IMG/VR virus record: IMGVR_UViG_3300028048_001599
Length of the DNA: 64,000 nt
Origin: a virus
Lineage: Duplodnaviria > Heunggongvirae > Uroviricota > Caudoviricetes
Direction: 5' to 3' (one strand)
Below the pieces are notes generated by a model, which was not told where the DNA came from, made no database searches, and saw only the letters and a list, made by a program, of their open reading frames with translations. Made by a program: the position numbers and the translations under genes. Below, piece after piece: positions 14,230 to 48,485 of this stretch (its first letter is position 1; every line of letters starts with the position of its first letter).

Positions 14230-14236
14230 GGTAATT

Positions 14237-14683: not shown

Positions 14684-14958
14684 TAAAAGAAGGTTACTTT
14701 GTGTGTGTTTTTAATCATTATTACTTCTTAGAAACACCAAATAAGCATAAATCAAAAGCAATGGCTCAATTTGTTGGTTACCGTATAGGTAAGACATCGG
14801 AATCAGAGATACAGATTATTAATGAATTATTATATAAGGTAGATTTGGAGATGTACCAATCAAATGGTGTCAACCGTGTTCGGATATACGGTAGAAAAAT
14901 AAATATGGATATTCCTCAAAATGAATTGACCTATGTTGGTAAATATGAATGGAGATGA
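14668..14958 (+). CDS. Hypothetical protein
   Basis: ORF with RBS GGAGGT. It overlaps the upstream stop. Confidence 0.5.
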   Translation: MEVVMIKEGYFVCVFNHYYFLETPNKHKSKAMAQFVGYRIGKTSESEIQIINELLYKVDLEMYQSNGVNRVRIYGRKINMDIPQNELTYVGKYEWR

Positions 14959-14963
14959 TTTAA

Positions 14964-15173
14964 TTGGCTACAAAGCTTATATCGGACGCAGAGTTCAAAA
15001 GAGATGTTGACCTTTGTAATACAGTATTAGCACAGAGGTTTGGCAGAACAGTTATGGTGTCAAGGGGTAAACCGACCATTTGGGTGAATGGACGTAAGAT
15101 TGCTTCTTGTGATAATCGTGATGAAGCTCAGAAGGTACTTTGGGCATTAACTGAATTTGCAAAAGCACTTTAA
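14964..15173 (+). CDS. Hypothetical small protein (TTG start)
   Basis: ORF followed by a strong terminator. Confidence 0.4.
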   Translation: MATKLISDAEFKRDVDLCNTVLAQRFGRTVMVSRGKPTIWVNGRKIASCDNRDEAQKVLWALTEFAKAL

Positions 15174-15177
15174 TTTT

Positions 15178-15221
15178 ATTGATGTGGTGTAGATAAAACA
15201 TACCACATCAATATTTTTATA
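15178..15221 (+). terminator. Rho-independent terminator
   Basis: attgatgtggt...accacatcaat hairpin followed by ATTTTTAT. Confidence 0.65.
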
Positions 15222-15265
15222 AACATTTACTTACACTTAATGATTATAAGAAATGAGGTGTTAAT

Positions 15266-15871
15266 ATGGCAGATATTAGCTTTTTGACTTATGTTTTAAC
15301 AATATGTAATACGATTGAAACTTGTAATAACAATCGAACTGATTTAAATATAAATAACTTTATTGATATTTACGTTGACTCAAAGGAAGGATTTGCATAT
15401 ATAGTCTTATCATCAAGGGGTAACACGAATTTAGAAATCCTACAAGGTATATGTCAGCAAATGAGATTAGATATTCCTGTATATGTTGGGGAAGTACGTG
15501 GTTACATTATAGTTTCCTTAAACTCGGATAAGGGTTTTACCAAATTCAAGACAAGAGGTAAACATGCGGTTGGTGATACTTATGGTATATTCCTAATTCT
15601 GTATGAAATCGTAAATCGAATAACATCAGCTAATTTTTATAACTACGATTACTGCTTGATAAATACAGCAAATCAGAAAATTACATTATCCTCGGATGTT
15701 TGTGCATTAGATAATTCTGATAAAGATAGAACAATAGAAATTGTTACTAAGACAATACGGTATGCAAGTAGGTTTCCTATTTATGCACCGGCTAAAAATT
15801 TTTCTATAAGTATTAGAAGTGAAAAAGGTACAAGTAGTATTGTTATTTATGTACCTGTACTAAGGAAGTGA
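15266..15871 (+). CDS. Hypothetical protein
   Basis: ORF with RBS TGAGGTG. Confidence 0.55.
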   Translation: MADISFLTYVLTICNTIETCNNNRTDLNINNFIDIYVDSKEGFAYIVLSSRGNTNLEILQGICQQMRLDIPVYVGEVRGYIIVSLNSDKGFTKFKTRGKHAVGDTYGIFLILYEIVNRITSANFYNYDYCLINTANQKITLSSDVCALDNSDKDRTIEIVTKTIRYASRFPIYAPAKNFSISIRSEKGTSSIVIYVPVLRK

Positions 15872-15875
15872 TAGA

Positions 15876-16238
15876 ATGTTTAAGTTATTTATGGGTTGCT
15901 TTGGTAACGGCACTTTGATATGTAATTCAGCAGTAAGGGAAAATGGTGACTATAAGAAAATAGCCCATATATCAAATGGGGGTAACATTACATGGTATGT
16001 TCCTGAAAATGAAATTCCTCCTGACGACCTAACAATTATAAAAGATACCGCAAAAAATGCTAAGTCTAAGTTTAAAAAGGATTTTGAGCAACATGATAAA
16101 ACTTGGCAGTATTACTATATGTTAAATTCTTTTAATATTGATCGTGTGCAATATTACTTGTCTGATGAATACAAAAATTCAAAGGACTTTGACCATCGAC
16201 TTTCCGAAATGCGAAATTATTTTTATAGTATAGCATAG
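15876..16238 (+). CDS. Hypothetical protein
   Basis: ORF with RBS AAGGAAGTGA. Confidence 0.5.
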   Translation: MFKLFMGCFGNGTLICNSAVRENGDYKKIAHISNGGNITWYVPENEIPPDDLTIIKDTAKNAKSKFKKDFEQHDKTWQYYYMLNSFNIDRVQYYLSDEYKNSKDFDHRLSEMRNYFYSIA

Positions 16239-16248
16239 GAGACTGATT

Positions 16249-16464
16249 ATGAGAATTACACTAGCGAGTTGTAAAGACATGTTAAAGAAAATCAATGCAA
16301 TAACAGTACCTCATGGTGTTACATATGATATGCAACGTATCTATGGTTCGTACATTATTGTAGCAAGTGATGATGAACAGGGTGTAGAATTTGGTGACAT
16401 GAAGGTTTGTTATTACGTATTAGTTGGTATTTATAATACATTGCAAAAGTATTATAGGGGGTAA
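16249..16464 (+). CDS. Hypothetical protein
   Basis: ORF with RBS AGGAGA. Confidence 0.5.
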   Translation: MRITLASCKDMLKKINAITVPHGVTYDMQRIYGSYIIVASDDEQGVEFGDMKVCYYVLVGIYNTLQKYYRG

Positions 16465-16469
16465 TCAAG

Positions 16470-16691
16470 ATGGGAATTTTTGAGTTAAAAAAGAAATGTG
16501 AGATAATCAATGAACGTGGTGTGACCAGAAGTTTACATGTAACATTCTCTGTGAAAGAAGAGCCAATAGAAGTATTTACCTTTTATTGTAACGATAACCC
16601 AATCTTCACAGGCTCAGAACATCAGCTGAGAGACCGGATGGAATTTTTAAGTGCTGTATTTTATTCTATTGCACAGTCAAAGGCGAGGTAA
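16470..16691 (+). CDS. Hypothetical protein
   Basis: ORF with RBS AGGGGGTAAT. Confidence 0.5.
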   Translation: MGIFELKKKCEIINERGVTRSLHVTFSVKEEPIEVFTFYCNDNPIFTGSEHQLRDRMEFLSAVFYSIAQSKAR

Positions 16692-16697
16692 GTATGT

Positions 16698-17150
16698 ATG
16701 AAGAAATTTAAAGTAAAATTTTGGCGAGGTAATTCACAGTTACCGAAGGGTGGTTACGAAACTACAAGAATAATTGTTGCACGAACCATGGCATCTGCTA
16801 AGAAAAAGGCTATTGAACAGTCTGAACAGATTTATAGTAATATGATTTTCTTAGACATTGAAGAGATGTTATTTGAAACGTTGAATTATAAGGAATTACT
16901 CAATAAAAGATTAACAGGTGTATACATAGCATATGGTAGTGGTACATTTATTATTCAGGAAAAACCATCAATAAATAAAGCACTTGTAAGTAAATTGACG
17001 AACTATTTGAAGTTGGACGAAGACTTTTTAGCATCTCACATGTTCAAGTACACTAACATTTCCACTGATGGGGATTTTTTATACATTCCAACAAATAATG
17101 AAACAATAAAAATTTGGTGTCAAGCTACAAAATTTCTGAAGGAGGTATAA
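16698..17150 (+). CDS. Hypothetical protein
   Basis: ORF with RBS GAGGTAA. Confidence 0.55.
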   Translation: MKKFKVKFWRGNSQLPKGGYETTRIIVARTMASAKKKAIEQSEQIYSNMIFLDIEEMLFETLNYKELLNKRLTGVYIAYGSGTFIIQEKPSINKALVSKLTNYLKLDEDFLASHMFKYTNISTDGDFLYIPTNNETIKIWCQATKFLKEV

Positions 17151-17151
17151 T

Positions 17152-17553
17152 ATGTCAGCAATTGATTTTTGGAAATATCAGACGATGGATATAATATTTC
17201 CATACATCATGAATTTCAGAACTAACTGTCATACATTGTTTGGAGCATCTAAATTAACACTGAAATACGATGCTAAAATAAGTGATGATGGTATAAGTGT
17301 GTTGAGAAAAATATCGAACCTACGTATTATATTGACACATGACGGTGTATATTCTGAGAATATTTATGTATCACATGCAGCATATATGACTGACATATGT
17401 AATAGGGTGTTAGACAATCGAAATGTGCAAAATGTGATTGTTAAGATATTACCTCTTGAAAATGCGTATGGGATATGTACATATAGTGTAGCAATAGTTC
17501 AAGGTAATAGACAGGCATATCTGGAATCGGTTCACCGATTTATAATAGAGTGA
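17152..17553 (+). CDS. Hypothetical protein
   Basis: ORF with RBS GGAGGT. Confidence 0.5.
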   Translation: MSAIDFWKYQTMDIIFPYIMNFRTNCHTLFGASKLTLKYDAKISDDGISVLRKISNLRIILTHDGVYSENIYVSHAAYMTDICNRVLDNRNVQNVIVKILPLENAYGICTYSVAIVQGNRQAYLESVHRFIIE

Positions 17554-17597
17554 TACTCGAAAAGTCACCTTTGTTTTTAATGACAGAGGTGATTTTT

Positions 17598-18395
17598 ATG
17601 TCGATAGGAAAATATTTTTACAAGATGTGGTTAGCAGTATTAATAATAGCTTTAAGTATAGCATTATTGATATCTTCTTTTATGCTAAACTCATTTAATC
17701 AAGCAAGGAAACTATCATTATCAGATGTTACAAATAAGGATAAAATAGAAGTTGTAAAGACAGTGAACACTGAGGTAAATCAAGGAGGGGTACTTTATTC
17801 AGAACTTGTAGGTAATCTTAGTTTAGATAATTATACAATTGTTGTAAGAAGTACCCGTGACCACATTGATTCAAATGATAATTACGTAATAAAACCATAT
17901 GATTTGGTTTATACATATACAAATAATGGTACTAACGAGTATTGGACACAGATATCGTATAAAAATGATAAATATGGGGTAAATAAGTACCTAAGTAAGA
18001 TTTCAGTAACAAAAAGAGCAAATGGGGTATATACTTACTCAAATTTTATAAAGAAATCGGAATATTCATCAAAAAACCCTTATAAGTTAGGTACATTTGT
18101 AGAAAAAGATTATATTGGTGAAATTTCAAACAAAGAAATGAAATATATAAGTGATATACTTTTTCAAGTTATTGTTGACACTTCTCCACTTATTTATAAA
18201 ATAAGTGATTTTAATGAAAATTGTAAAATAATTAATAAATCTGATAATTATGAAATGTACCAATATTCTAAAAATGATACTATTTCAAATATTGAAGTAT
18301 ATAAGGCGAATGATTTTTGGGTCTATAGAGTTGTACCGACTTATAATTCTGTTAGCGATTTGACATATCAGTATCAAATAAAGTTTGAAATATAA
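17598..18395 (+). CDS. Membrane-anchored hypothetical protein
   Basis: ATG 17598 after AGAGGTGA. It has an N-terminal TM helix (WLAVLIIALSIALLISSFML). Confidence 0.55.
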   Translation: MSIGKYFYKMWLAVLIIALSIALLISSFMLNSFNQARKLSLSDVTNKDKIEVVKTVNTEVNQGGVLYSELVGNLSLDNYTIVVRSTRDHIDSNDNYVIKPYDLVYTYTNNGTNEYWTQISYKNDKYGVNKYLSKISVTKRANGVYTYSNFIKKSEYSSKNPYKLGTFVEKDYIGEISNKEMKYISDILFQVIVDTSPLIYKISDFNENCKIINKSDNYEMYQYSKNDTISNIEVYKANDFWVYRVVPTYNSVSDLTYQYQIKFEI

Positions 18396-18657
18396 CTTTT
18401 TGATTTAATTAAAACCTTTTTATATTTTTATTAAGTCTTGTACGATTTTTCGTATTATTTCCGAAAATTTCAGAAGTTGTAAAAATTAGTAAAAATACAA
18501 GGACTAAAATTTGGGTACTTTTAAGGATTATGAATAGTAAAAATGTAGGACTTATTTCGACATTATTGTTATAATAAAATTCAAGAAATTTTCGTAATTG
18601 CAAAAGTCGGAATAGGGTATTGTGAAAATTTAACACATTTTGCAAGATAAAAAATTA

Positions 18658-18686
18658 TTGACATTTTCTGATAAATGTGTTATAAT
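18658..18686 (+). promoter_or_regulatory. Consensus sigma-A (sigma70-type) promoter
   Basis: TTGACA, a 17-nt spacer, then TGTTATAAT (extended -10). It lies in the 360-bp AT-rich intergenic region upstream of 18756. Confidence 0.7.
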
Positions 18687-18755
18687 TATTTAGTAAATTA
18701 ACCCTCACGGGTTTAATTTAATATACATTTTAATTATGAAAGGACGTAGTTAATT

Positions 18756-20945
18756 ATGGCTAAGAAACATAAGAAACTTCAAACTATTACTGCTTGTATT
18801 CTTTCGGCAATGCTTGTATCGAGTATGTCTGCAATGACTGCATTTGCGGCAGAAGACGATGCTGAAGGTATTACTGACTGGGACGATGGTGCAGTCGATG
18901 CTGGTACAGATGATACCGCATGGGGTGACGATGATAATACTTATGACAATGGTACTACTGAAGACTTTGTAGACACAGATACAGATTCGGAAGGAACGGA
19001 TGAAGATTTCGGTGGTGACGGTTGGGAAGACCCAGTATATGACGGTGGAACAGATGGAGGTTTTGGCGACGAAGATTGGGAAGACCCAACATATGACGAT
19101 GGAACAGATGATTCTCAGGAAGATGTAGACTGGGGTACAGGCACTGGCGAAGTCGAAGGTGGTCTTGAAGAAGGTGACCTTGGAGAAGGCGATTTCGACA
19201 CAGACGGGGGTGACGAAGACGCTCCTATTGACTGGGACTTAGGCGACGATGATGACGAAGACGCCCCTATTGACTGGGACTTAGGTGACGATGATGACGG
19301 TACTGAAGAAACACCTGATTGGGACTTAGGTGACGATGATGACGGTACTGAAGAAACACCTGATTGGGACTTAGGCGAAGGTGAAGACGGTGGAGAAGAT
19401 ACACCTATTGACTGGGACTTAGACGAAGATGATATTGACAAAACACTTGACTGCGACGGTGATGACGGTAATGAAGAAACACCTGTAGATGATACACCCA
19501 CTGACGACAATCCAGTAGACGACCCTGTAGATGATACACCTACTGACGACAATCCAGTAGACGACCCTGTAGATGATACACCTACTGACGACAATCCAGT
19601 AGACGACCCTGTAGATGATACACCTACTGACGACAATCCAGTAGACAACCCAGTAGACGACCCTGTAGATGATACACCTACAGACGGGGGTGAGGGTGAA
19701 AGTGGTGAAGAAACACCTGTAGACGATCCTACTGATGATAACCCTGTAGACGATACACCTACTGATGGTGGTGAGGGTGAAGATGGCGAAGAAACACCTG
19801 TAGACGATCCTACTGATGATAACCCTGTAGACGATACACCTACTGACGACACACCTACTGATGATAACCCTGTAGATGATACACCTACTGATGATAACCC
19901 GGTAGATGACACACCTACTGATGATAACCCTGTAGATGATAACCCTGTAGATGACACACCTACTGATGATAACCCGGTAGATGACAACCCGGTAGATGAC
20001 ACACCTACTGATGATAACCCGGTAGATGACAACCCGGTAGATGACACACCTGTAGACGATAATCCCACTGACGGTGGCGAAGACGAGAAGCCTGTTGACG
20101 GTGGTGACGATGAGACACCTGTAGAGGGTGATGATACACCTACTGATGATACACCTATCGACGGGGGTGAAGACACACCTGCTGATGATACACCTGTTGA
20201 CGGTGGTGACGATGAGACACCTGTAGAGGGTGATGATACACCTACTGATGATACACCTACTGATGATACACCTACTGATGATACACCTACTGATGATACA
20301 CCCGTTGACGGTGGTGATAGCGAGACACCTGTAGAGGGTGATGACACTCCCACGGACGACAATCCGACAGACGGTGAAGACACACCTGCTGATGATACAC
20401 CCGTAGATGGTGATGAAACACCTACTGACGGTGGTGACGATGAAACACCTGTAGAGAGTGATGACACACCTACTGACAGTGGTGAAGACACACCTTCCGA
20501 TGAAACACCTGACGATGGTGATGCTAAAACACCTGTTGACGGTTCTGAAGACGGCGAAGGTGAGGATAAAACTCCTTCCGATGAAACACCTGCCGATGAA
20601 ACACCTATAGATGGTGCTGGTTCTGAAGATGGTTCTGAAGATGGTTCTGAGGACGGTTCTGAAGACGGTTCTGAATACGGTTCTGAAGACGGTTCTGAAG
20701 ACGGTGATTCCGATAGCGAATACGTTGACGCAGTAGCTCCTATTTCTGATAACACGAATACACCTTCCAGTGGTTCTTATACTGGTGACAGTGATTACAC
20801 ACCTTCCTACTCTTACACAGATGGTGGTTCTGTAGACACTGTTAAGACTGGTGATACAATGCCGATTATGGCAATGGTTGGGGTAGCAATTGCTTCAGCA
20901 CTTGCTGGTATTGCAGCTTTCTTTAAGAGAAAGAGAGAAGACTAA
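18756..20945 (+). CDS. Secreted, extremely acidic repeat protein with a candidate sortase sorting signal. It is a putative cell-wall-anchored surface protein.
   Basis: Signal peptide MAKKHKKLQTITACILSAMLVSSMSAMTAFA. About 600 aa are D/E/T/P repeats (PVDDTPTDDN and similar). The C-terminus is VKTG-DT, then 22 hydrophobic residues, then KRKRED. This is the tripartite cell-wall sorting signal architecture, with KTG resembling sortase B motifs (NPKTG/SPKTG). Confidence 0.75.
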   Translation: MAKKHKKLQTITACILSAMLVSSMSAMTAFAAEDDAEGITDWDDGAVDAGTDDTAWGDDDNTYDNGTTEDFVDTDTDSEGTDEDFGGDGWEDPVYDGGTDGGFGDEDWEDPTYDDGTDDSQEDVDWGTGTGEVEGGLEEGDLGEGDFDTDGGDEDAPIDWDLGDDDDEDAPIDWDLGDDDDGTEETPDWDLGDDDDGTEETPDWDLGEGEDGGEDTPIDWDLDEDDIDKTLDCDGDDGNEETPVDDTPTDDNPVDDPVDDTPTDDNPVDDPVDDTPTDDNPVDDPVDDTPTDDNPVDNPVDDPVDDTPTDGGEGESGEETPVDDPTDDNPVDDTPTDGGEGEDGEETPVDDPTDDNPVDDTPTDDTPTDDNPVDDTPTDDNPVDDTPTDDNPVDDNPVDDTPTDDNPVDDNPVDDTPTDDNPVDDNPVDDTPVDDNPTDGGEDEKPVDGGDDETPVEGDDTPTDDTPIDGGEDTPADDTPVDGGDDETPVEGDDTPTDDTPTDDTPTDDTPTDDTPVDGGDSETPVEGDDTPTDDNPTDGEDTPADDTPVDGDETPTDGGDDETPVESDDTPTDSGEDTPSDETPDDGDAKTPVDGSEDGEGEDKTPSDETPADETPIDGAGSEDGSEDGSEDGSEDGSEYGSEDGSEDGDSDSEYVDAVAPISDNTNTPSSGSYTGDSDYTPSYSYTDGGSVDTVKTGDTMPIMAMVGVAIASALAGIAAFFKRKRED
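19200..20720 (+). repeat. Composite array of imperfect tandem repeats (30-45-bp units, plus a 12-bp gatggttctgaa unit at about 20618..20703)
   Basis: Visible periodic repetition encoding DAPIDWDLGDDDD, PVDDTPTDDNPVDDP, TPTDD and SEDG units. Confidence 0.85.
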
Positions 20946-27545: not shown

Positions 27546-27968
27546 ATGAAAAAATATCTATTAATGACACTGGTTGTATTAGCTATGGTGGGTACTTCTG
27601 CCTGTAATAATGGTAACGATAAACAAAAGCAGCAAACATTAGCTGATGATAGTTCCGCAAGTCAGGCATCTATTTCACATGTTGAATCTGTAGTAGCTTC
27701 AAAGGTTGATGAAAGTAAACCTGACTTATTTGAACGTGAGGAACAAAGTTTAGAGCCTGTTACATCGGATAATATTATAGACAGCACGACACTTCCGGGC
27801 TCAACAAGTTCAGAAACTGAGGAATCATTGAATGGTGGCGAGACATCTGAGCAAGTGTCTGAACAGGTATCAAGGCAGACATCAGGTGATGTTTCAGGTC
27901 AGGAATCGACAACATCAGGTGAAACTGAACAGGAATCAAGTTCACATGACATAGGTGGCTTGTCATAA
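27546..27968 (+). CDS. Lipoprotein (lipobox TSAC) with an acidic S/T/E-rich mature region
   Basis: RBS AGGAGGGT. Signal peptide plus lipobox VGTSAC. Confidence 0.6.
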   Translation: MKKYLLMTLVVLAMVGTSACNNGNDKQKQQTLADDSSASQASISHVESVVASKVDESKPDLFEREEQSLEPVTSDNIIDSTTLPGSTSSETEESLNGGETSEQVSEQVSRQTSGDVSGQESTTSGETEQESSSHDIGGLS

Positions 27969-28007
27969 TACATAGTTAGTAGGTGTCACACAAGGGGTGT
28001 GATATAA

Positions 28008-28286
28008 ATGCGTACAAGAAATGGTTACTTTATAGAGTTAAATGGTAAAAACCTTTTTATAATTCAAGAGTCTTACTATCTCAAGGATAAACTGATAAAG
28101 ATTTTATTGTTAAGATTTGGCTGTAATTATGACCCTGAGTCAATAAAGAAAACACGGTCAAATGCAAAAAGAGCCAAGTTAGGGGTAGACAACCTTGGAA
28201 ATTACATAGTTAAACTAAAGGGTGGAACATTTACTCATATAGAGAATATTGTGATATTAAACTCAAATTCTTTTAACTTAGATTAA
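28008..28286 (+). CDS. Hypothetical protein
   Basis: ORF with RBS AGGGGTG. Confidence 0.45.
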   Translation: MRTRNGYFIELNGKNLFIIQESYYLKDKLIKILLLRFGCNYDPESIKKTRSNAKRAKLGVDNLGNYIVKLKGGTFTHIENIVILNSNSFNLD

Positions 28287-28297
28287 GAGGTGATTAC

Positions 28298-28621
28298 TTG
28301 ACTTTATGGAAATTCAAGGTGTTTGAACAATATTTCTTAGATGTTATGCAAAGACATGAAACAGAGTTCAACTTGAATATTAGTAATATACTTGTAAGTT
28401 TTGACGGTATAATCAAACTAAATGGGGTTTTAACTAATATTCAAAATACACCTTATGAATTAAGAAAAATATATAAAAATATTTTATCTTCTGTATGTAA
28501 TAATTATAATACAGACATACGGTATAATAACATACACGGTGACATTATCAATCCAGTCATAAATGTATGTTTAACCAAAAATAGGGGTATTTATGACTTC
28601 GTATTTGAAATAAAAGTTTAA
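28298..28621 (+). CDS. Hypothetical protein (TTG start)
   Basis: ORF with RBS AGAGGTGA. Confidence 0.45.
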   Translation: MTLWKFKVFEQYFLDVMQRHETEFNLNISNILVSFDGIIKLNGVLTNIQNTPYELRKIYKNILSSVCNNYNTDIRYNNIHGDIINPVINVCLTKNRGIYDFVFEIKV

Positions 28622-28641
28622 AAGGTATAGGTGGTAACAAA

Positions 28642-29607
28642 ATGAAATTAAAAAGACTTTTAGCGGTTCTCCTTGCATCGGTTGTATTTGTCGTACCGAT
28701 GTCAGCTTGTAATAATTCTTGTTGCAAAGATGGTGAATGTCAGTGTAGTTGTTGTAATCAGAACAAGGAAAGTTCTGTTGAATCTTCGGATGAATCTGAA
28801 TCACTTCCTGATGAAAATACCAACTCTGAATCGTATTCAGAACCATCAGACGAAGTAAAGGCAACAAAGGTTTATAAATACTTTGATAAAGTAAACACGG
28901 ATAAGGATACAAAAGTTACAGTCACATCTGATAATACCACATATAAGTATTTTGTAAGTGACGGCGAGATGGTTCAGTATGTTAACGTAACGGGTGATAA
29001 CCCTCAGGAGGGGGTACAATATAGTAAGGGTGATAAAGCTTATATTGTTGATATTACAAATAAGCAATACCGGACTTACGATTTGACGAATGACGAGAAG
29101 GCAATGAAATCTACGTACCTCTCAAATATCGTAAAAACAATGTTTACAAGTATAGAATTTGTGGATGAAAAAGACGGATACGAGGTATTTAAGTTTATAA
29201 CAACAGATTCAGAGGAGAAGAACGGGGTAGACTCAACTGAGAAATCAGTTGTTGATGATATTGAACCATCAAAGAAGTCAACATCGAGTGGTGCTACCGC
29301 GAGTTCCGCAAGTACTGACAGTTCTGAGGTTTCTGATGATGCTTCTGAAATAGTAACTCCAGAATATCTTTACATGAAAGTTGAAAAAGACGGAGTACTT
29401 GTAGAATCACGTGATTCTAAAGGCGAGATTTTGGACTCATCAAAATACTCAGTTTCAAAGGTAACAGAAAGTGATAAAAAAGTTTGTTCAATAGAGGGGT
29501 GTAAGGAAATAAAGGGTGAAGATGTTTCAAATCTTCCTAACGTTCCTGATGTTTCTGAGGATACTTCAAAAGTTGAATCAGCTGTTGAGTCTAATAGCTC
29601 AAATTAA
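28642..29607 (+). CDS. Lipoprotein, paralog family member 1
   Basis: Lipobox MSAC. It shares the KDGxxY...KTY.IxD and EKDGYEVFKF...DKK motifs with 35114..35890 and 38730..39623. Confidence 0.65.
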   Translation: MKLKRLLAVLLASVVFVVPMSACNNSCCKDGECQCSCCNQNKESSVESSDESESLPDENTNSESYSEPSDEVKATKVYKYFDKVNTDKDTKVTVTSDNTTYKYFVSDGEMVQYVNVTGDNPQEGVQYSKGDKAYIVDITNKQYRTYDLTNDEKAMKSTYLSNIVKTMFTSIEFVDEKDGYEVFKFITTDSEEKNGVDSTEKSVVDDIEPSKKSTSSGATASSASTDSSEVSDDASEIVTPEYLYMKVEKDGVLVESRDSKGEILDSSKYSVSKVTESDKKVCSIEGCKEIKGEDVSNLPNVPDVSEDTSKVESAVESNSSN

Positions 29608-29771
29608 TAAAGTGTAGCAAGTATGTGTTAGTATACTAATATTGTATATAATACTTGGTGCATTAATAGCAATATTAGCATACATATACTCATTATATTA
29701 CTTTGTATCGATGTTGTTATTGATGCTGTCAGTTTTTGAGAAAGATAACCAACAAAGAGAGAAGGAACACA

Positions 29772-30245
29772 ATGAAGAGTATACGTGCAATTTTGAAGCA
29801 GAATGACAAACATGAAATAAAACTGAATTTTAGTGTGGATAATAGGTACAAATCAGCTATTGTAACGTCTATAATAAAAGCTATATCAATTATAATTTTA
29901 GGTATTATTGCACAGGTAAACGTTGGAGGCTCAGCTGGTTTATTTACGTTGTTTTCAACGATAGGAATAGGGGTAGTAATGATAGCACTAGGGATTCGGG
30001 TGTCTACAACAAAAGAGTTGTTAGATGTGCTTAGGTTAATCTTGATATATTTTATAACGGGGGTATTATACATTATATGTTTTGTATTAATTATTACGTT
30101 AGATATGTTTAAGGTTACGAGTGATTTTAAGTGGTTATCTTTAGTATCAGTAATAAATGTGGTAGTTAATTTCTGTTGTTATTATGTTTCATTGTTTGCA
30201 TTGGATATGCATTTACAGTATTCAAATAATTCAGATAAATTTTAA
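29772..30245 (+). CDS. Integral membrane protein (about 4 TM helices)
   Basis: ATG after AGAGAAGGAACACA. Hydrophobic helices are visible. Confidence 0.55.
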   Translation: MKSIRAILKQNDKHEIKLNFSVDNRYKSAIVTSIIKAISIIILGIIAQVNVGGSAGLFTLFSTIGIGVVMIALGIRVSTTKELLDVLRLILIYFITGVLYIICFVLIITLDMFKVTSDFKWLSLVSVINVVVNFCCYYVSLFALDMHLQYSNNSDKF

Positions 30246-30332
30246 ACCACAAGGTAGCACGACAGTGTTACCTTGTTCAATTTGTACTTTAATGTTGACC
30301 TTTTTGGTTTAAGGTCAAGGGGGACTTGAAGA

Positions 30333-31169
30333 ATGAAAAAGAATATATTAATTTTACTTGTAGCATGTTTGGTTTTGTTATGTTCAGGTTGTACTAATTG
30401 GGTTCATGCAGAGAGTGAGGATGACGTTTCTACAGCTTCAGAGGCAAGTATGTTAGAAAAAGCAACTGCATCCACTGATAATAAGGCTCAACTTAAAGAG
30501 GAAAACAGTAAACAAGAAGTTATCACGTTGACTACGGAATTTAAGTCAAAAATTAAAAAATTATATGAAAAAGACTCAGATATGACTATAACATGTAAGA
30601 TAAAGAATCATTACGGTGAGTGTTCTTTTTCTTGGGATTACATTGTAAGAAAACATTCTGATTATGCATATCGTGTATATATTGAGAATATTAAATGTAC
30701 AAGTTGTAATTTTAAATCTATAACTTCTGAGGATGTTACTAACTACATGAATAGAGTATTAAGTTGTACCACCTTAGAGGGAATAAGAGGGGTAGATGAA
30801 TGTGCTTATGATTTGTATATTTTTAATGCACGTGTGCGGGAAAAAATAGACGCATCAGATTTTCAGAGACTTGTATTTGATAAATTAAATGACAACGATG
30901 AAATAATATATGATTCGTATGATGGTGAATGTTTACGTGCATCACATGAGGCATTAGGTTGTATAGCTTCAAAAATAACAGACATATATGGTGGGGACAT
31001 TACTTCGGTATTATCAGCTGATATAAATTTCGATGCTAAACAATCAGATAAAACTCAGCATTTCATAAGGGGTAATTACACATATGATGTTTCCTTGAGT
31101 AAAGACGAACTCAAATTAAATTCAGTAGTAAATGACGTAAAAACCGAAATGACAATCAAGATTAAATAA
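30333..31169 (+). CDS. Lipoprotein (lipobox CSGC)
   Basis: RBS AGGGGGA. Signal peptide MKKNILILLVACLVLLCSGC. Confidence 0.6.
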   Translation: MKKNILILLVACLVLLCSGCTNWVHAESEDDVSTASEASMLEKATASTDNKAQLKEENSKQEVITLTTEFKSKIKKLYEKDSDMTITCKIKNHYGECSFSWDYIVRKHSDYAYRVYIENIKCTSCNFKSITSEDVTNYMNRVLSCTTLEGIRGVDECAYDLYIFNARVREKIDASDFQRLVFDKLNDNDEIIYDSYDGECLRASHEALGCIASKITDIYGGDITSVLSADINFDAKQSDKTQHFIRGNYTYDVSLSKDELKLNSVVNDVKTEMTIKIK

Positions 31170-31220
31170 GGTAAGCACACTTATGTGTTTATAATAAATT
31201 ATGAAAAATGAGGTATGAAC

Positions 31221-32792
31221 ATGGAAATCGAGTTTATTCCAATCATTATTGGAGTGGTTGTAGTCATAGCATTAATTATATTTATGTGTATGATTTATCG
31301 TGTTGCAGACATCGACAAGGCACTAATTGTAACAGGCGGTAAGAAACCAATAGTCAAGGTATCAGGGGGTAGTTTTGTAATTCCGATATTCCGAAAAGCT
31401 CAGTACTTTGACCTTTGTATGCTTACTGTTACTGCTGACAGGGATGAGGTAAAGACAGTAACAGCGGTACCAATTATCATTGACTGGACAGCACAGATTA
31501 GACCTGATACATCTGATGTAGAAGGTAAACTTATGAAAGCTATTGTATCATTTAAAGAGAGGGGTAAAGACGGCATTGTAAATGACGTAAGACTTACACT
31601 GACTGGTGCAGTACGTGATATAGTTGCTTCAATGACACCTGAAGAGGTACTGAAGGATAAACAGACATTTACTGAAAAAGTAATACATATCGTGTCTGAT
31701 GAAATGGCAAAAATGGGTATGGAACTTGTTTCATTAAACATTCAGGACATAACTGATAAAAATGGTTACTATGATAACATGGCAGCACCTGATATGCAAG
31801 CCAAAAGGCAAGAGGCTGAAGTCACAAAGGCGAAAGTTGACCAAGCTATCAGAGAGCAGAAGGCAGAGTCTGAGAAGAAGGCACAACAGGCAGAACTTAC
31901 ATCACAGTTGGAAGTAGCTGAAAAGAAAAAGGATAACGACCTAAAACTTGCAGACTTCAAAACACAGACAGACGTAGCTAACGCTAACGCTGAGATTGCT
32001 GGTGAACTTCAAAAGACAAAAAGACAGCAAGAGATAGCCGTAGAACAAGGTCGTATTAAAGTTGTAGAACAGGAACAGGCTAACCTTGCCGCTCAGAAAG
32101 AAAAAGAGGTAATTGCCACAAAAGCGGAAGCAAACAAGCAGAAAAAGATGATTGACGCTGAGGGTGACGCAAACGTAAAGAGAATAGCAGCCGAGATGGG
32201 GGTAGAAGTTGCAAAACAGGATGCCGAGGCTGTAAGAACCACTGCTAAGGCTCAGGCTGATAGAGTAACTGCTGAAGGTAACGCTGAAGCAGAGGTTGTA
32301 AGACAAAAAGGTATTGCAGCTGCGGACGTTCAGAAAGCACAGGGTACTGCTGAGGCTGACGTTGATAGAGCAAAGCGTATGGCAGAGGCAGATGGTACAA
32401 AAGCACAGCTTATAGCACAAGCTGAAGGTGAACAGGCACTTGCTGATGCTCGTGCTTCACACGATAAAGTCAATTTTGAACTTGCGAAGGTTGAAATTGA
32501 GAATCGTACAAAAGTTGAGATTGCAACTAATGTAGCTACAATAATGGCAGAGGTTGGAAAGAACGCTCAGTTCGTAAATATTGGCGGTTCAGTAGGTAAT
32601 GGTTCAACAGGAAATGTACTTCTCGACACCCTGAGAGGTATACCGGAACTTATGAAGGTTCTTGACGTTGAAAATCAGGCACTTAACGGAAAGCCGTTCA
32701 ATGAAGAGGTTGAAGGACTTGTAAAGAGTGTAGCAGGACCTGTAAAGGGTATTTTGTCAAGTAACACACCTGAGGCTACTGATAAGAAATAA
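31221..32792 (+). CDS. Flotillin / SPFH (band 7) domain protein
   Basis: N-terminal TM helix, then LIVTGGKKP...SPFH core, then a long Ala/Glu/Lys/Gln-rich coiled-coil region typical of flotillins (FloT-like). The start is probably ATG 31221 (9 nt from GAGGTA). Confidence 0.8.
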   Translation: MEIEFIPIIIGVVVVIALIIFMCMIYRVADIDKALIVTGGKKPIVKVSGGSFVIPIFRKAQYFDLCMLTVTADRDEVKTVTAVPIIIDWTAQIRPDTSDVEGKLMKAIVSFKERGKDGIVNDVRLTLTGAVRDIVASMTPEEVLKDKQTFTEKVIHIVSDEMAKMGMELVSLNIQDITDKNGYYDNMAAPDMQAKRQEAEVTKAKVDQAIREQKAESEKKAQQAELTSQLEVAEKKKDNDLKLADFKTQTDVANANAEIAGELQKTKRQQEIAVEQGRIKVVEQEQANLAAQKEKEVIATKAEANKQKKMIDAEGDANVKRIAAEMGVEVAKQDAEAVRTTAKAQADRVTAEGNAEAEVVRQKGIAAADVQKAQGTAEADVDRAKRMAEADGTKAQLIAQAEGEQALADARASHDKVNFELAKVEIENRTKVEIATNVATIMAEVGKNAQFVNIGGSVGNGSTGNVLLDTLRGIPELMKVLDVENQALNGKPFNEEVEGLVKSVAGPVKGILSSNTPEATDKK

Positions 32793-32810
32793 TTACATAA
32801 TATAACATTA

Positions 32811-32882
32811 ATACACGTATCATATAATAAATACATAATAATTTGTTATGGCATTTATTGCTGATACGTGTATATTTTTATG
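32811..32882 (+). terminator. Long-range inverted repeat plus T-tract (possible terminator)
   Basis: atacacgtatca ... tgatacgtgtat (12 bp perfect, about 40-nt loop) followed by ATTTTTATG. Confidence 0.35.
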
Positions 32883-33080
32883 CTTAGTGAACATTTATTT
32901 ATTATGAAATAGTAATGGTTTTGCATATCTTGATGACGTTATAAAAGACGTCTATAAATACATTCATTGATTTATTCTGTCGAAATTTGTAGAAGATTAG
33001 AGTAATTTGTTGTACATTAGAAAGTTGATAAGAAATCATTAGTTAGTTTTTATATTCAGTTAGAGGATGGGTGTAATACT

Positions 33081-33476
33081 ATGATTATTGGTTATAGAAC
33101 ACAAAATTCAAGTTTTAACTCAATAGTAGTACCCTTTAAAGATGTACTTGAGTTTGAAACAAAGGAGTTAGGAAATGTAGATATTTACCTAACAATGCGT
33201 GAACGTTATGGTTTGAAAATAGACCTACGTTGGAAAAAAGACAAATGTAACGCTATAATACTTGAATATTTTAAAAAGAAATACAAAGGGGTAGTTCCAC
33301 TTTGTGTTTGGCTTTGTGACTCACCTTATTCTGTTAAACAACTTTACTCACACGGTAATGAACCAATAATAAAGGTAATATTACCTGATAGTACCATTAT
33401 TGCATCAGATTTGGGATATGACGGTAGGTTATATGTGATACATTCAGGTCAAACTTACTCTTGGGAATATGTATAA
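33081..33476 (+). CDS. Hypothetical protein
   Basis: ORF followed by an imperfect hairpin at 33489..33520. Confidence 0.5.
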   Translation: MIIGYRTQNSSFNSIVVPFKDVLEFETKELGNVDIYLTMRERYGLKIDLRWKKDKCNAIILEYFKKKYKGVVPLCVWLCDSPYSVKQLYSHGNEPIIKVILPDSTIIASDLGYDGRLYVIHSGQTYSWEYV

Positions 33477-33621
33477 GATTTATAATTATTACCTGTTGGT
33501 TAAGTATTACCGACAGGTAAAAATTAATAACATATTTCCATTATTAATAAATAAGTGATAGTGTCTGAGTGGATTGAAGGGGAGTTTAAGGACACAAACT
33601 AATAGAAAAGGGGTAATACAT

Positions 33622-34611
33622 ATGAGAAGTGTTAAAAAACGCATTTTGAGTGTTGCTTTATCATTGACTATGGTCTTAGGTGTTTCAATTTTACCTGCTT
33701 CAATTTCTGTTGATGCCGCTAACTTGAATAGTTTAAGTAATGGTTATAAGAAGAATGGTAACATTGAATCTAAATATTATAGACAGTTAAAGAACACGGT
33801 AAATGATATCAACGCAAATAATAAGACAAATTCGACAATTTATATGAACGCTACAGCACGTATCGCAGAATCCCAAGTGGGGTATTCTTGTTATGCAACA
33901 TTCGGTGATTCAAGTGCTGTTCGTTGGAATGGTATATCTGCACGTATGAATGGCTATTACACGGGGAATACTGAATATACACGTTGGTTCTTCACTGATG
34001 TAATTAAAGATGCTAAAAACAGGTCTAATAGATATGCAGACCTCGATTGGTGTGCAATATTTGCATCGTGGTGTATGTATCATTCGGGGTATCATGCTAA
34101 TACCTCTGATAAATATATAGTATACTCATCGTGTGCCGATCCACGTAAGGATTTAGCAAAGGGTGAACGTTGGACTGCATTTAATGGTGCAGAGAGCAAA
34201 TGTTGGTATACAAAGACTGGTACCATTGCACTTAATGAGCAATCTTGGGTTTATCATGCATGGTCGGGGTTCAACGGTTATAAAGATTTCAAGACTTGGA
34301 ATAAAAATGTTACATCCAATCATAGAAATCGTAGTGCACTGTATAAATACACAAGCAACGGAAAGACAGTAAATGCAAATGGTATACCTTATAAGCGTGG
34401 TGGTTTGGTATTTTTCGACTGGGAACAGGACGGTAAATTTAACCATGTTGCTATTGTGAAGAAGGTTAGTGGTAATACATTAACAATCATAGAAGGTAAC
34501 GCAAGAGCAGGTGGAATAGGGGGTACACATTCGGGAAATTCTAGTGTACGCATAACCACTGTAAACTTGAAAACTCAAGGCAAATTTATTGCCGCATATA
34601 TGGAATATTAA
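33622..34611 (+). CDS. Secreted CHAP-domain peptidoglycan hydrolase (putative endolysin or virion lysin)
   Basis: ATG after AAAGGGGTAATACAT. Signal peptide MRSVKKRILSVALSLTMVLGVSILPASISVDA. CHAP signature Cys (LDWCAIFASWCMYH) and His (FNHVAIVKKVSGNTLTIIEGNA). Confidence 0.7.
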   Translation: MRSVKKRILSVALSLTMVLGVSILPASISVDAANLNSLSNGYKKNGNIESKYYRQLKNTVNDINANNKTNSTIYMNATARIAESQVGYSCYATFGDSSAVRWNGISARMNGYYTGNTEYTRWFFTDVIKDAKNRSNRYADLDWCAIFASWCMYHSGYHANTSDKYIVYSSCADPRKDLAKGERWTAFNGAESKCWYTKTGTIALNEQSWVYHAWSGFNGYKDFKTWNKNVTSNHRNRSALYKYTSNGKTVNANGIPYKRGGLVFFDWEQDGKFNHVAIVKKVSGNTLTIIEGNARAGGIGGTHSGNSSVRITTVNLKTQGKFIAAYMEY

Positions 34612-35113: not shown

Positions 35114-35890
35114 ATGAAAATTTCGAGGGTATTAGCGGTTAGCATGTGTTGTGTTATATGTTCAGCACTTGTAGGTTGTGATAATAAAAGTAATAATGAG
35201 GTTTCAGAATCCGCTGAATTAAGTATAGTAGTAAGTACTGAGACCTCAAATGATAGTAGTGATACTTCAAAAAATCCTATGCAACATGAATCATCAAATG
35301 ATGCAGAAAGTTCATTAACAAAACCTACTGTATCTAACGATTCTAATTATATCTCTATTAATGACTTAGATAAAACAAAGTCTTACGGATATTATAAAAA
35401 TTTCAAATCAATGGGTTCAGCGACATTGTCTGGTGAAATTGTAGAAATACTAAACGATTCAGAAAATGTATCGACTTTTAAGATGTGTAAGGACGGTAAG
35501 AAAATATACATCGAAATGTTTTCGGGGGATTTTGGTTTAGCCGAATACTTTGATGGAAAGCAATATTACACATTAAATAAAACTGACAAAACCTACAGTG
35601 TAATTGATGGTTTATCCTATAATTTTGACGGTGAAATAAACGGTTTATTTACTGGTATGGCAAGTGTAGTAGAAAAAGATGGTATAGAAATATTTACATT
35701 ATCGGATGTGCAATACGCAGCGAATGGTGATGTTGAATTATTAGCTGAAACAACAGATGATGGTGTAACATTAAGTATTCGCAAAGCAGGGGGTACTGAA
35801 ATTAAGCGAAAAATTCGTTTTAGAATAAGTACACTTTCAGAAGATGATAAACAAAATTTCGGTATCAATGGTTATAAGAAGGTTGAGTAG
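35114..35890 (+). CDS. Lipoprotein, paralog family member 2
   Basis: Lipobox LVGC. C-terminal EKDGIEIFTLSD...FRISTLSEDDKQNFGINGYKKV parallels 38730 FKLSKVSDNDKKLFDISGYNEI. Confidence 0.65.
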   Translation: MKISRVLAVSMCCVICSALVGCDNKSNNEVSESAELSIVVSTETSNDSSDTSKNPMQHESSNDAESSLTKPTVSNDSNYISINDLDKTKSYGYYKNFKSMGSATLSGEIVEILNDSENVSTFKMCKDGKKIYIEMFSGDFGLAEYFDGKQYYTLNKTDKTYSVIDGLSYNFDGEINGLFTGMASVVEKDGIEIFTLSDVQYAANGDVELLAETTDDGVTLSIRKAGGTEIKRKIRFRISTLSEDDKQNFGINGYKKVE

Positions 35891-35901
35891 TGAGGTTACA
35901 T

Positions 35902-36120
35902 ATGAAAAGATTATCTAAGAGAAATTCAAGAAACAATAAGATGTTTGTTTCAATACTGTTATGTATTTCGATAGTTCTTATAGCTTTAATGGTAACAATA
36001 ATAGTTATATCAATGCCTATGTTATCATTTCAAGAAACCTGTTTTGCATTTGGTATTTTATTTATAGCAATGTTAGCATGGTGGTTATTTTATAGGAGAA
36101 TCCGGAAGAAATTAAAATAA
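35902..36120 (+). CDS. Small two-TM membrane protein (holin-like candidate)
   Basis: ATG after GTGAGGT. It has two hydrophobic helices and a basic C-terminus. Confidence 0.45.
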   Translation: MKRLSKRNSRNNKMFVSILLCISIVLIALMVTIIVISMPMLSFQETCFAFGILFIAMLAWWLFYRRIRKKLK

Positions 36121-38729: not shown

Positions 38730-39623
38730 ATGAACAAGAAACTCATAATTGGGGTAATTACATTAGCAATTGTAGGTTCAAGTGTGGTTTGTATGTCAGC
38801 ATGTTCAAAGGAATCCAATGACACCCAAAGTTCAGTTACATCAAGTAAAATTGAAAAAGACGTGTCAAAGGATACTTCAAATGACACTTCCAATGACACT
38901 TCAAATGACACCTCAAATGACACCTCAAAGGTTGAAAAAAGTTCCTCAAAAAGTGGTGAAAACACCGTAGATGTTGATGAACCATCGTCAGTGGTATCAA
39001 AATCAAGTGAACCAATTGAGCACCTAATAGCTGCGGAAGCATCTGAGGAATCTTCAGAGTCATCTGAGAGAAAGATTAGTTCTGAGGTTAGAAATTCAAA
39101 CTTTGGCAAATTTATGTTAAACATAGGCAAAAGAATAGCAAGCGGAGCTACACTTAATGTTTCACGTGATATAAATTCAATAAAACTTGTTACTGTTGAT
39201 GACTCTATAGCTTTGGTTATTAAAGACACAAATGATGAAATAACATATTATAATGTTGTAAAGGACGGTAAATCTTTCGTTATTGACCCTAAGAATAAAA
39301 CTTATGTTATATCAGATGATTCATCACGTGCTAAGGATTTAGTAAGCACGTCAAATGATGAAATTAATAGTGGCTTAGATTACTTAAAACTTGATAAAGT
39401 CGAGGATGGCTATGAGTACTTTTCATTTGATGCTGAAGCATCATCACAAGGGGTAAATGATATTTTAATAGTCAAAGCTACCGAAGATGAATGTACGATT
39501 TATGCAAATACTCTTGACTCAACACCATATATGACATTCAAACTGTCGAAAGTATCAGACAATGATAAAAAGTTATTTGATATATCAGGTTATAATGAAA
39601 TAGACGCAGCGTCAGTAAACTAA
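38730..39623 (+). CDS. Lipoprotein, paralog family member 3
   Basis: Lipobox MSAC. DTSN repeats (12-bp tandem at about 38871..38930). Shared C-terminal domain as described above. Confidence 0.65.
   Translation: MNKKLIIGVITLAIVGSSVVCMSACSKESNDTQSSVTSSKIEKDVSKDTSNDTSNDTSNDTSNDTSKVEKSSSKSGENTVDVDEPSSVVSKSSEPIEHLIAAEASEESSESSERKISSEVRNSNFGKFMLNIGKRIASGATLNVSRDINSIKLVTVDDSIALVIKDTNDEITYYNVVKDGKSFVIDPKNKTYVISDDSSRAKDLVSTSNDEINSGLDYLKLDKVEDGYEYFSFDAEASSQGVNDILIVKATEDECTIYANTLDSTPYMTFKLSKVSDNDKKLFDISGYNEIDAASVN
38871..38930 (+). repeat. 12-bp tandem repeat (gacacttcaaat-like, about 5 copies) encoding DTSN repeats
   Basis: Visible tandem copies. Confidence 0.8.
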
Positions 39624-39743: not shown

Positions 39744-40139
39744 ATGTCATATCAGAAAAAGTACTGGCTCGAACATAAATTACCTGATAGTAATATTTGG
39801 AAAGGCTGGATAAATTTATACAGTACGTGTATAACGGATTTACCAAAAGAAATATTTGGTACATATTGGTTTGAAAAGACATCAGTAGGTTGGCGGGGTT
39901 ACTTTTGGTTAAACAATCAGACCGAACAAGACGCTGTAAACAATAACCAATTTGTAGTCACAGCAGGTATTTGGAGACCTGAAGTAACATTCAAAACACC
40001 GCCTATGTCTATGCAAGAAGCTGAAGCAAGATTACGGTACTTAGAGGAAATATCAAGCAATTACACAGTCATTCCGAGGATAATATGTAGAATTGAAGAT
40101 AGTGTGATATTGTCAAAGTGTCATGTTATGGAATATTGA
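39744..40139 (+). CDS. Hypothetical protein
   Basis: ORF with RBS AGGGGGTAA. Confidence 0.5.
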   Translation: MSYQKKYWLEHKLPDSNIWKGWINLYSTCITDLPKEIFGTYWFEKTSVGWRGYFWLNNQTEQDAVNNNQFVVTAGIWRPEVTFKTPPMSMQEAEARLRYLEEISSNYTVIPRIICRIEDSVILSKCHVMEY

Positions 40140-40171
40140 CTGTAATAAATTAGGTCAAGGGGGTAATCAAA

Positions 40172-40582
40172 ATGAAGGTAATTACAAATAAGGAATTATT
40201 ACAATTTATTCGTAGAACAACAATATCTGAACAACTAAGTCCGGTTACAGATGATATCGTGAAATTTACTGCTGTACTTAATAATTTCATGGGACCTCTT
40301 AATTCAATCGGTGTTGCTAATAAGGTTAATAAATTACTTATGTCTGCAACTGACTCTGAGGATTTGAGGCATATTTTTCAGGTTGTCAAAGTTGCAGAAA
40401 GTAGACCTGTAAATTTGGACAGATTAAATATTCAGGAATTAAGACTTTACTGTAATGCTTTTGACTATAAATATAATGAATGTCTGACAAACTCATTTGA
40501 CATGTGGTCTGAGGTATTTGGCACTGAGTTCAATAACTGCGTACGTAAGGAGATAGTGGCATACATAGAAAATTGTGATTAA
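40172..40582 (+). CDS. Hypothetical protein
   Basis: ORF with RBS AGGGGGTAAT. Confidence 0.5.
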   Translation: MKVITNKELLQFIRRTTISEQLSPVTDDIVKFTAVLNNFMGPLNSIGVANKVNKLLMSATDSEDLRHIFQVVKVAESRPVNLDRLNIQELRLYCNAFDYKYNECLTNSFDMWSEVFGTEFNNCVRKEIVAYIENCD

Positions 40583-48468: not shown

Positions 48469-48485
48469 GTTAGGGGTTGAACATT

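Follow-up and report, generated by a model that had tools for sequence, protein, structure and literature searches.

The 64,000-nt stretch of DNA analysed here (the window; IMG/VR record IMGVR_UViG_3300028048_001599) contains at 31221-32792 a genuine, full-length flotillin gene of the FloT/flotillin-1 type. Its closest chromosomal relatives are those of rumen Clostridia, and the window is probably part of a resident giant replicon related to pXO16, a plasmid of Bacillus thuringiensis sv. israelensis. Our overall interpretation is a tentative one: a host-derived FloT-type flotillin is carried by a pXO16-like giant replicon, where it would act as a scaffold, probably organising the element's own envelope proteins. 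SPFH/flotillin genes on mobile elements are already known, and the strongest points here are that giant elements have captured such genes recurrently and that the carrier is, unexpectedly, related to pXO16.

The flotillin and its origin

The features of the gene are as follows.

31221..32792, + strand: 523-aa FloT-type flotillin (family matches, anchor, coiled coil)
31233-31289, + strand: membrane anchor of the flotillin (hydrophobic segment)
about 31320-31835, + strand: SPFH/Band_7 domain of the flotillin
about 31776-32570, + strand: coiled coil rich in E, A, K and Q, then a conserved C-terminal region
32811..32885, + strand: long stem-loop with a T-run, terminator-like 3′ end of the flotillin transcript (RNA fold)

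The open reading frame (ORF) opens at 31215, and its true start is the ATG at 31221, because of a GAGG ribosome-binding site (RBS) and a 100%-identical database protein of 523 residues (P0001). The protein has a single N-terminal hydrophobic segment at residues 5-23 (mean Kyte-Doolittle value 3.26; predicted helix 3-27). Pfam PF01145 (Band_7/SPFH) matched residues 36-207 with E=2e-19 and 70.7 bits (cut-off 23.6), and the NCBIfam FloT model was aligned over 387 residues with E=4e-56. Using phmmer, human flotillin-1 (9bq2_B) matched residues 32-379 (348 residues, SPFH and coiled coil) with E=1.4e-33. An earlier note, made from the letters alone, had described a full-length flotillin with a transmembrane (TM) anchor and an SPFH core, and these searches bear it out; the matches are not confined to coiled-coil proteins, the SPFH/Band_7 core being found above its cut-off. 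The coiled coil of about 300 residues described there is indeed a long E/A/K/Q-rich helix, but its length is about 265 residues: residues 186-450 are 55% E/A/K/Q and predicted to be helical (helices 185-278, 281-377 and 387-449). The AlphaFold2 (AF2) monomer model was of low confidence (pLDDT 56); its top PDB folds in Foldseek were the flotillin complexes 9l3g and 9bq2 (prob 1.0). The identity of the gene as a FloT/flotillin-1-type flotillin is confirmed. The B. subtilis FloT equivalog NF058507 of NCBIfam gave 190.9 bits, below its cut-off of 700 bits, so the window protein is a relative of B. subtilis FloT and not its orthologue or equivalog. FloT (YuaG), flotillin-1/2 and the window protein all have an N-terminal anchor, SPFH/Band_7, a long Ala/Glu-rich coiled coil and a conserved C-terminal region. 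In contrast to FloT and flotillin-1/2, the window flotillin is encoded on a mobile replicon instead of a chromosome, and no NfeD (YuaF-like) gene lies beside it.

Compared with L070, a 90%-identical relative on a 98-kb contig, the flotillin was 97.1% identical in amino acids (dN/dS 0.09, dS 0.17) and is under strong purifying selection. It is the best-conserved gene of its neighbourhood, with 80% identity to L001 (a 178-kb contig of a sister lineage) versus 28-34% for the flanking lipoproteins. None of 200 shuffles was as stable as the stem-loop at 32811-32885 (−26.7 kcal/mol, z = −4.54). An antisense ORF of 159 aa (31941-32420, − strand) lies within the stretch encoding the coiled coil and is probably no gene but a consequence of repetitive GC-skewed codons.

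A database search gave hundreds of full-length flotillin homologues at 60-82% identity, and the alignment with chromosomal homologues was colinear from end to end, with many invariant columns. Scanning one genome per species gave 40 flotillin loci, nearly all from ruminant-gut metagenome-assembled genomes (MAGs) of Ruminococcus sp. RUG, Acutalibacteraceae and Clostridia. The window flotillin is 67-70% identical to the chromosomal flotillins of rumen Ruminococcus/Acutalibacteraceae MAGs. In a neighbour-joining (NJ) tree, which is indicative only, the window flotillin and its close relatives form one clade, and the sister of this clade consists of Ruminococcus/Acutalibacteraceae loci, where acetate kinase, Obg, ribosomal protein L21 and RNase III are the neighbours. 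In view of this identity and this placement, the simplest reading is that an ancestor of the element captured the chromosomal flotillin of a rumen Ruminococcus/Acutalibacteraceae-like bacterium. The flotillins of rumen Oscillospirales chromosomes (Ruminococcus sp. RUG, Acutalibacteraceae, Clostridia bacterium RGIG5109) have the same length and are alike over their full length at the 67-70% level, and they sit among housekeeping genes, whereas lipoprotein genes of a 324-kb element form the island around the window copy. The window clade has diverged as a unit (77-82% identity within the clade). One flotillin, 67% identical and from a Clostridia MAG (L004), is flanked by cysteine/methionine-metabolism, peptidase and Mur-ligase genes, which is a chromosomal context. 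GC content was rejected as a sign of recent transfer: in nearly all loci, those on chromosomes among them, the flotillin gene exceeds the DNA around it by 3-8 points of GC.

The carrier element and its kinship with pXO16

Proteins of the window were found as exact copies on contigs of 323,685 and 324,292 bp from different samples (L071 and L072), so the element is about 324 kb in size and the window about one fifth of it. The 323,685-bp contig is k141_446481 of ENA ERZ27252073. With 18 kb of flanks added to the 64-kb window, about 82 of the ~324 kb have been read so far. The family-A DNA polymerase (PolA) of the window aligned over its full length with PolA of pXO16, the 349.6-kb plasmid of B. 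thuringiensis sv. israelensis, at 41% identity and 601 bits; the two are 38-41% identical and share unusual N- and C-terminal extensions. When every window protein was compared with the whole of pXO16, nine homologues were found in strictly the same order, at 12-57 kb of the window and 34-119 kb of pXO16. The colinear genes (12018-57377 of the window; pXO16 is NZ_CP045024.1, L073) are listed by their window position; besides the CHC2 primase, the NAD ligase, ParB/HNH and PolA, they comprise a neighbour of the primase, three genes of unknown function and one weak match.

12018: CHC2 primase
21852: colinear gene
26290: NAD ligase
37007: ParB-HNH
41810: colinear gene
43632: colinear gene
46159: colinear gene
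47830: colinear gene (weak)
53322: PolA

Several members of this backbone set were matched, among 72,556 plasmids, only by ten pXO16-size B. thuringiensis plasmid records. Both elements are similarly very large, with nearly all genes co-oriented, and both encode a sortase and giant surface proteins. They differ in their host branch, which is Clostridia for the window element and Bacilli for pXO16, and only 9 of ~78 window genes are common to them, at 25-41% identity. The flotillin had no match in full pXO16, which is without a flotillin, and the window CHAP hydrolase had no match there either. A relative in rumen Clostridia would be new, since descriptions of pXO16 present it as unique to B. 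thuringiensis sv. israelensis. To our knowledge pXO16 has been treated as a one-off, and we know of no relaxase or oriT identified for it. The carrier may matter more than the flotillin gene: comparison with a colinear element of uncultured rumen Clostridia would allow the conserved genes of the pXO16 system to be picked out. That pXO16 is conjugative is an experimental finding; the plasmid carries an atypical transfer locus together with genes for a sortase and for surface proteins of aggregation (PMC9673590).

All called genes of the window are on the + strand, coding density is 93% and GC skew is uniformly positive. The replication and recombination genes include PolA with an intein, CHC2 primase, helicase, NAD ligase and a RuvC-like resolvase. 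DNA-conflict genes include a ParB_N-HNH nuclease, several methylases, an ArdC-like anti-restriction protein and a phosphoesterase. Helix-turn-helix (HTH) regulators, a sortase, a 2156-aa BspA-type leucine-rich-repeat (LRR) protein and the secreted CHAP hydrolase are the other recognisable functions of the window. The flanks encode in addition a WGR/PARP protein, a dCTP-deaminase/dUTPase and two giant proteins, one of at least 2844 aa and one of 1234 aa that has a signal peptide. About 20 of the 94 window proteins are secreted, lipid-anchored or membrane proteins according to signal peptides, lipoboxes and TM segments, giant signal-peptide adhesins included. Signal-peptide proteins mean display on the cell and not incorporation into virions; this is cell-surface biology.

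Pfam and PHROGs searches of the window and its flanks gave no match to a family of capsid, portal, terminase, tail or holin proteins, and the same 82 kb contained no type IV secretion system (T4SS) family and no tRNA. Megablast of window positions 29000-34000 gave no match in phage records. PolA matched phage records at ≤30% identity and ≤191 bits, and the concatenated backbone proteins of unknown function matched no phage record except through the common phosphoesterase and ArdC-like domains. In IMG/VR, searched with single queries and with alignments, there was no member of the window flotillin lineage and no PolA relative above 26% identity. Nothing came of scanning metagenomes with a concatenated window-edge query, and the search for dispersed repeats in the window gave only tandem repeats inside one gene. 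The w43632-like proteins were considered as plasmid Rep initiators and rejected, their small-plasmid homologues being methylase-like proteins of about 800 aa that lie beside other Rep genes.

The earlier note had called the flotillin phage-encoded, a description left unsupported by the lack of virion families in 82 kb and of phage-record or IMG/VR lineage matches, and by the colinearity with pXO16. Together with the load of surface proteins, these results lead us to rate a resident pXO16-like replicon as the probable carrier, and as likelier than a megaphage. In the latter case the element would be a huge phage of ~324 kb, and the flotillin an infection-stage auxiliary gene that maintains or remodels the membrane of the host, for instance for replication or assembly platforms, for membrane integrity in long latency, or for lysis timing. 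The replication set described above, with its HNH nucleases, methylases and phosphoesterase, is typical of large phages, and the co-oriented genes and high coding density are in line with one. Flotillins of the same subfamily (59-66% identity) are also found on 66-320 kb IMG/VR viral contigs by tRNA arrays and NAD-salvage genes. Against a phage stand the virion, packaging, holin and tRNA genes missing from the 82 kb, backbone genes that occur in no phage record, a lineage that is absent from IMG/VR, and a best PolA match to a plasmid (601 bits, versus at most 191 bits for phages); the giant adhesins, the five lipoproteins and the sortase with its substrate characterise a resident element that decorates the cell. 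We consider a megaphage unlikely on this balance. A true megaphage that decorates its host with sortase-anchored adhesins would be likewise unusual.

Some observations weigh against the resident replicon. Several window proteins match PHROG families of unknown function, and since only ~82 of ~324 kb have been seen, virion or T4SS genes could lie elsewhere. The FtsK/SpoIIIE-domain ATPase of pXO16, its tip locus and its other candidate transfer genes had no homologue in the 82 kb. Moreover, pXO16 itself was once suspected to be phage-like for its co-oriented genes, though plaques were never obtained (PMC6199540).

Gene neighbourhood and possible roles of the flotillin

Two genes precede the flotillin on the same strand. 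They and the hairpins of this region are as follows.

29772..30245, + strand: 157-aa polytopic membrane protein with four predicted TM helices (4-TM protein) and no soluble domain (ORF, RBS)
30249..30318 (30249-30276 and 30295-30318), + strand: two stable hairpins between the 4-TM and lipoprotein genes (RNA fold)
30333..31169, + strand: 278-aa lipoprotein (signal peptide and lipobox)
31171..31192, + strand: short hairpin between the lipoprotein and flotillin genes (RNA fold)

The 4-TM gene starts with the ATG at 29772 behind the RBS GAAGGAA. Its product has hydrophobic segments at residues 29-47, 57-75, 90-108 and 124-142, with about 15 residues after the last helix, and had no match in Pfam, PHROG, NCBIfam or PADLOC. 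An exhaustive profile search gave only 2 relatives among 1.84 billion representatives, by which measure the protein is a lineage-restricted orphan. It was rejected as a candidate NfeD, there being no NfeD match and no C-terminal OB domain. Pfam found no NfeD in any neighbour of the window flotillin, and none lies beside the chromosomal homologue L004 either. The 164-bp gap ahead of the 4-TM gene contains a 54-aa hydrophobic ORF (29642-29806; TTG start, no clear RBS), which overlaps the 4-TM start.

The signal peptide of the lipoprotein ends in LLCSG and is followed by the invariant Cys20; its relatives have a canonical LFTGC lipobox, and seven further Cys residues are invariant in the mature part. 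No match was found for it in Pfam, PHROG or NCBIfam, the PDB sequence search was empty, and the AF2 model from a 5-sequence alignment (pLDDT 47.6) was too poor for a fold search. PADLOC had no match for six proteins of the region, all three genes included, and a defence-system identity for the region was rejected on this ground.

The 4-TM protein is 81% identical to that of L070 (dN/dS 0.18, dS 0.62) and the lipoprotein 72% identical (dN/dS 0.19, dS 0.90). With the flotillin's own ratio of 0.09, these dN/dS values argue that the three are not chance ORFs, and the trio at 29772-32792 consists of real same-strand genes as the earlier note had it. Each of the three has its own 3′ hairpin, more stable than shuffled controls (30249-30318, −30.6 kcal/mol, z = −3.97; 31171-31192, −9.4 kcal/mol, z = −2.7; that of the flotillin as given above).

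The order 4-TM, lipoprotein, flotillin is kept in L070, and among the loci compared the trio is present only there and in the window. The sister lineage comprises L001, L060 and L062, whose flotillins are 77-80% identical to that of the window. In these three loci the 4-TM gene is absent, its slot is occupied by a lipoprotein, and the flotillin closes an array of five lipoprotein genes. Homologues of the lipoprotein stand directly upstream of the flotillin in L070 (72% identity), L001 (31%) and L060 (25%), the L062 lipoprotein in this position being a truncated form of 39 aa. Neither partner lies beside the flotillin in the chromosomal locus L004, in L005, or in eight large elements (L007-L014). 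The three-gene membrane module of the earlier note thus holds as an adjacent trio kept in L070, but not in the sister lineage, at the chromosomal homologue or in the eight large elements. The flotillin behaves as backbone, and the lipoproteins and the 4-TM gene as a fast-turnover envelope island. Judged by this distribution, the 4-TM protein and the lipoprotein are no obligate partners of the flotillin, and the trio is a local neighbourhood rather than a unit travelling together.

Flotillins are rare in phage genomes, a point on which the earlier note was right: 12 of 50,697 phage records had a homologue, all at ≤33% identity, and several of these were short fragments. Among plasmids, 61 of 72,556 had a flotillin, and most of these were large and non-mobilisable. 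Phage-annotated SPFH proteins (PHROG 200; Vibrio phage KIT04, crAss-like csAssE-Sib, Xanthomonas phages X1 and BUDD) resemble the window case in being SPFH membrane proteins on mobile elements. They are 24-33% identical to the window flotillin, and their carriers are demonstrable phages, whereas the window's carrier is at most a putative phage. Papers on phage SPFH/flotillin proteins state their role as unknown (PMC13239085, PMC13384950). The eight IMG/VR contigs L007-L014 (66-320 kb) encode flotillins 59-66% identical to that of the window. These are of the same subfamily and of rumen/gut Clostridia type, on very large elements likewise, in a wholly different context. In L008-L010 and L012-L014 the flotillin has NAD-salvage genes on one side and an array of 7-17 tRNAs on the other, and Thg1, Tpt1 and PTH2 are nearby; such surroundings are the auxiliary region of very large phages. 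The NAD-salvage set (about 6000-20000 of the locus) consists of a NAPRTase-like protein, NAD synthase, nicotinamidase and PRPP synthase, and L013 also has a tRNA with the anticodon TTA, predicted to read a stop codon. The flotillins of the IMG/VR contigs fall in at least three tree positions interleaved with bacterial ones, and a further element of 378-532 kb has a 62%-identical flotillin. At least four backbones without another common gene carry it: the pXO16-like lineage, the tRNA-array viral contigs, the 320-kb IMG/VR contig and the 378-532-kb element. Since the tree positions are scattered and no other gene is common, the flotillin has been acquired more than once, by very large elements that are unrelated to each other but belong to one group of bacteria.

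How the flotillin might serve a pXO16-like replicon can be outlined as follows. Its N-terminal segment would anchor in the cytoplasmic membrane as in the host flotillin, to judge from near-complete residue conservation, and by analogy with the family the SPFH domain and long coiled coil would oligomerise into membrane-attached cages or microdomains. Flotillins are known to form membrane-attached cages (PMC11260169), to control membrane fluidity (PMC7360373) and to scaffold secretion machinery, e.g. the type VII secretion system (T7SS) of S. aureus (PMC5718613). The element would in this way gain its own supply of membrane scaffold, which is the weakest step and is read from the gene neighbourhood. 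The scaffold could then support export and lipid- and wall-anchoring of the five lipoproteins, the CHAP hydrolase, the sortase and its substrate and the giant adhesins, and possibly also a mating or transfer apparatus. The roles of bacterial flotillins are still debated. Copies retained under strong constraint by several unrelated giant elements amount to a natural experiment, one suggesting that scaffold becomes limiting in a cell that has to export or assemble a large foreign envelope proteome. A broader proposal, that giant elements of rumen/gut Clostridia repeatedly capture host flotillin because they need a scaffold of their own for envelope or transfer machinery, with the window as the first pXO16 relative outside the Bacillus cereus group, is at this stage doubtful.

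The scaffold proposal has its own difficulties. The giant contigs L007-L014 have no envelope genes near the flotillin and no other gene in common with the window; they carry the same subfamily, so the link between flotillin and envelope genes is not a general one. The separate hairpins and the sharply unequal dS values against L070 (0.62 for the 4-TM gene and 0.90 for the lipoprotein gene, versus 0.17 for the flotillin) argue that the trio is not one evolutionary unit.

A general protective function, in which extra SPFH cages would shield or repair the membrane against the element's own secretion load, competing phages or abortive-infection effectors, is rather improbable. In B. subtilis, an SPFH protein recruits the phage-shock protein PspA to the membrane (PMC8581546). 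The capture of flotillins by at least four unrelated large elements that have nothing else in common with the window points to a generic, context-independent benefit, and the anti-restriction and methylase genes represent an investment of the element in conflict with its host. However, no PspA, IM30 or other stress partner was detected in the window, the six proteins compared with PADLOC had no match, and a mobile-element flotillin acting in this manner is without experimental precedent.

Still less probable is a dedicated complex that would join the flotillin cage with the 4-TM protein and the lipoprotein as its specific clients or partners, by analogy with SPFH-NfeD or HflK/C-FtsH pairs. The conserved order in L070, the homologous lipoprotein gene just ahead of the flotillin in L001 and L060, and purifying selection on all three genes speak for such a complex. 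It is contradicted by the lack of the 4-TM gene in L001, L060 and L062 and the truncation of the lipoprotein to 39 aa in L062, by the absence of both partners from the chromosomal homologue examined and the eight large elements, by a 4-TM protein of only 2 known relatives without an NfeD or OB domain, and by the separate hairpins and the dS of 0.62-0.90 in the upstream genes against 0.17 in the flotillin. That the flotillin is a mere passenger, picked up with host DNA and of no use to the element, would fit its high similarity to host chromosomal genes and the 61 flotillin-bearing plasmids, but is very improbable given its retention in every member of two sublineages whose neighbouring genes have diverged to 28-70% identity, its dN/dS of 0.09 and several independent captures by unrelated large elements.

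Envelope island and other genes of the element

The genes surrounding the trio are the upstream and downstream parts of the envelope island, listed here with their coordinates.

27546-27968, + strand: upstream part, lipoprotein (lipobox and signal peptide)
28008-28621, + strand: upstream part, two small proteins
28642-29607, + strand: upstream part, lipoprotein (lipobox and signal peptide)
33622-34611, + strand: downstream part, secreted CHAP peptidoglycan hydrolase (Pfam CHAP 1.9e-6, signal peptide)
after the CHAP gene, + strand: downstream part, small protein
35114-35890, + strand: downstream part, lipoprotein (signal peptide, lipobox)
35890-36120, + strand: downstream part, 2-TM protein (TM prediction)

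The upstream part (27546-29607) has syntenic homologues in L001, L060, L062 and L070. The CHAP gene is broken in L070 (13416-14164) by a deletion of about 565 bp and is present in L060 at 40% identity. The five lipoprotein genes of the window start at 27546, 28642, 30333 and 35114 or lie at 38730-39623; paralogy among them was rejected, none being detected at E<1e-4. Compared with L070, the lipoproteins at 27546, 28642, 30333 and 35114 and the 4-TM protein are 72-81% identical in amino acids with dS 0.5-1.2, while the backbone around these divergent islands is 92-100% identical with dS 0.04-0.55. Such islands of divergence suggest allele exchange or diversifying turnover of surface proteins.

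A different kind of change is seen at 39744-40582, where two adjacent small genes are 16-19% identical to L070 (19026-19901) between flanks of 94-100% identity. This looks like a replaced cassette, and one of the genes in L070 has DUF4869.

Other surface proteins are encoded away from the island. The sortase gene is at 48477-49460. A 729-aa protein at 18756-20945 is acidic, with Pro/Thr/Asp repeats (extensin-like). It begins with a signal peptide and ends in a TVKTG motif, a hydrophobic helix and a KRKRED tail, and is thus a likely element-encoded sortase substrate. Three giant proteins are encoded by consecutive genes spanning window positions 1-8338 and L072 positions 1-9924. The first has at least 2844 aa and Asn/Gly-rich repeats; the second has 1234 aa and a signal peptide, and its C-terminal 570 aa are the first window ORF (79-1791), for which no homologue was detected; the third is the 2156-aa BspA-type LRR protein, which has a signal peptide.

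Among the DNA-related genes, the 368-aa protein at 49574-50680 matched PHROG 7245, 'anti-restriction protein', with E=1.4e-39, and it is likely to carry the window's zincin-like MPTase-PolyVal domain, i.e. to be ArdC-like. The intein of PolA (53322-57377) occupies about residues 766-1048; the pXO16 orthologue has none. The WGR/PARP protein (403 aa, with a WGR domain and a PARP catalytic domain) is encoded at L071 10712-11923, some 1.2-2.4 kb past the 3′ end of the window, and the dCTP deaminase/dUTPase gene follows about 6 kb beyond it at L071 16766-17347.

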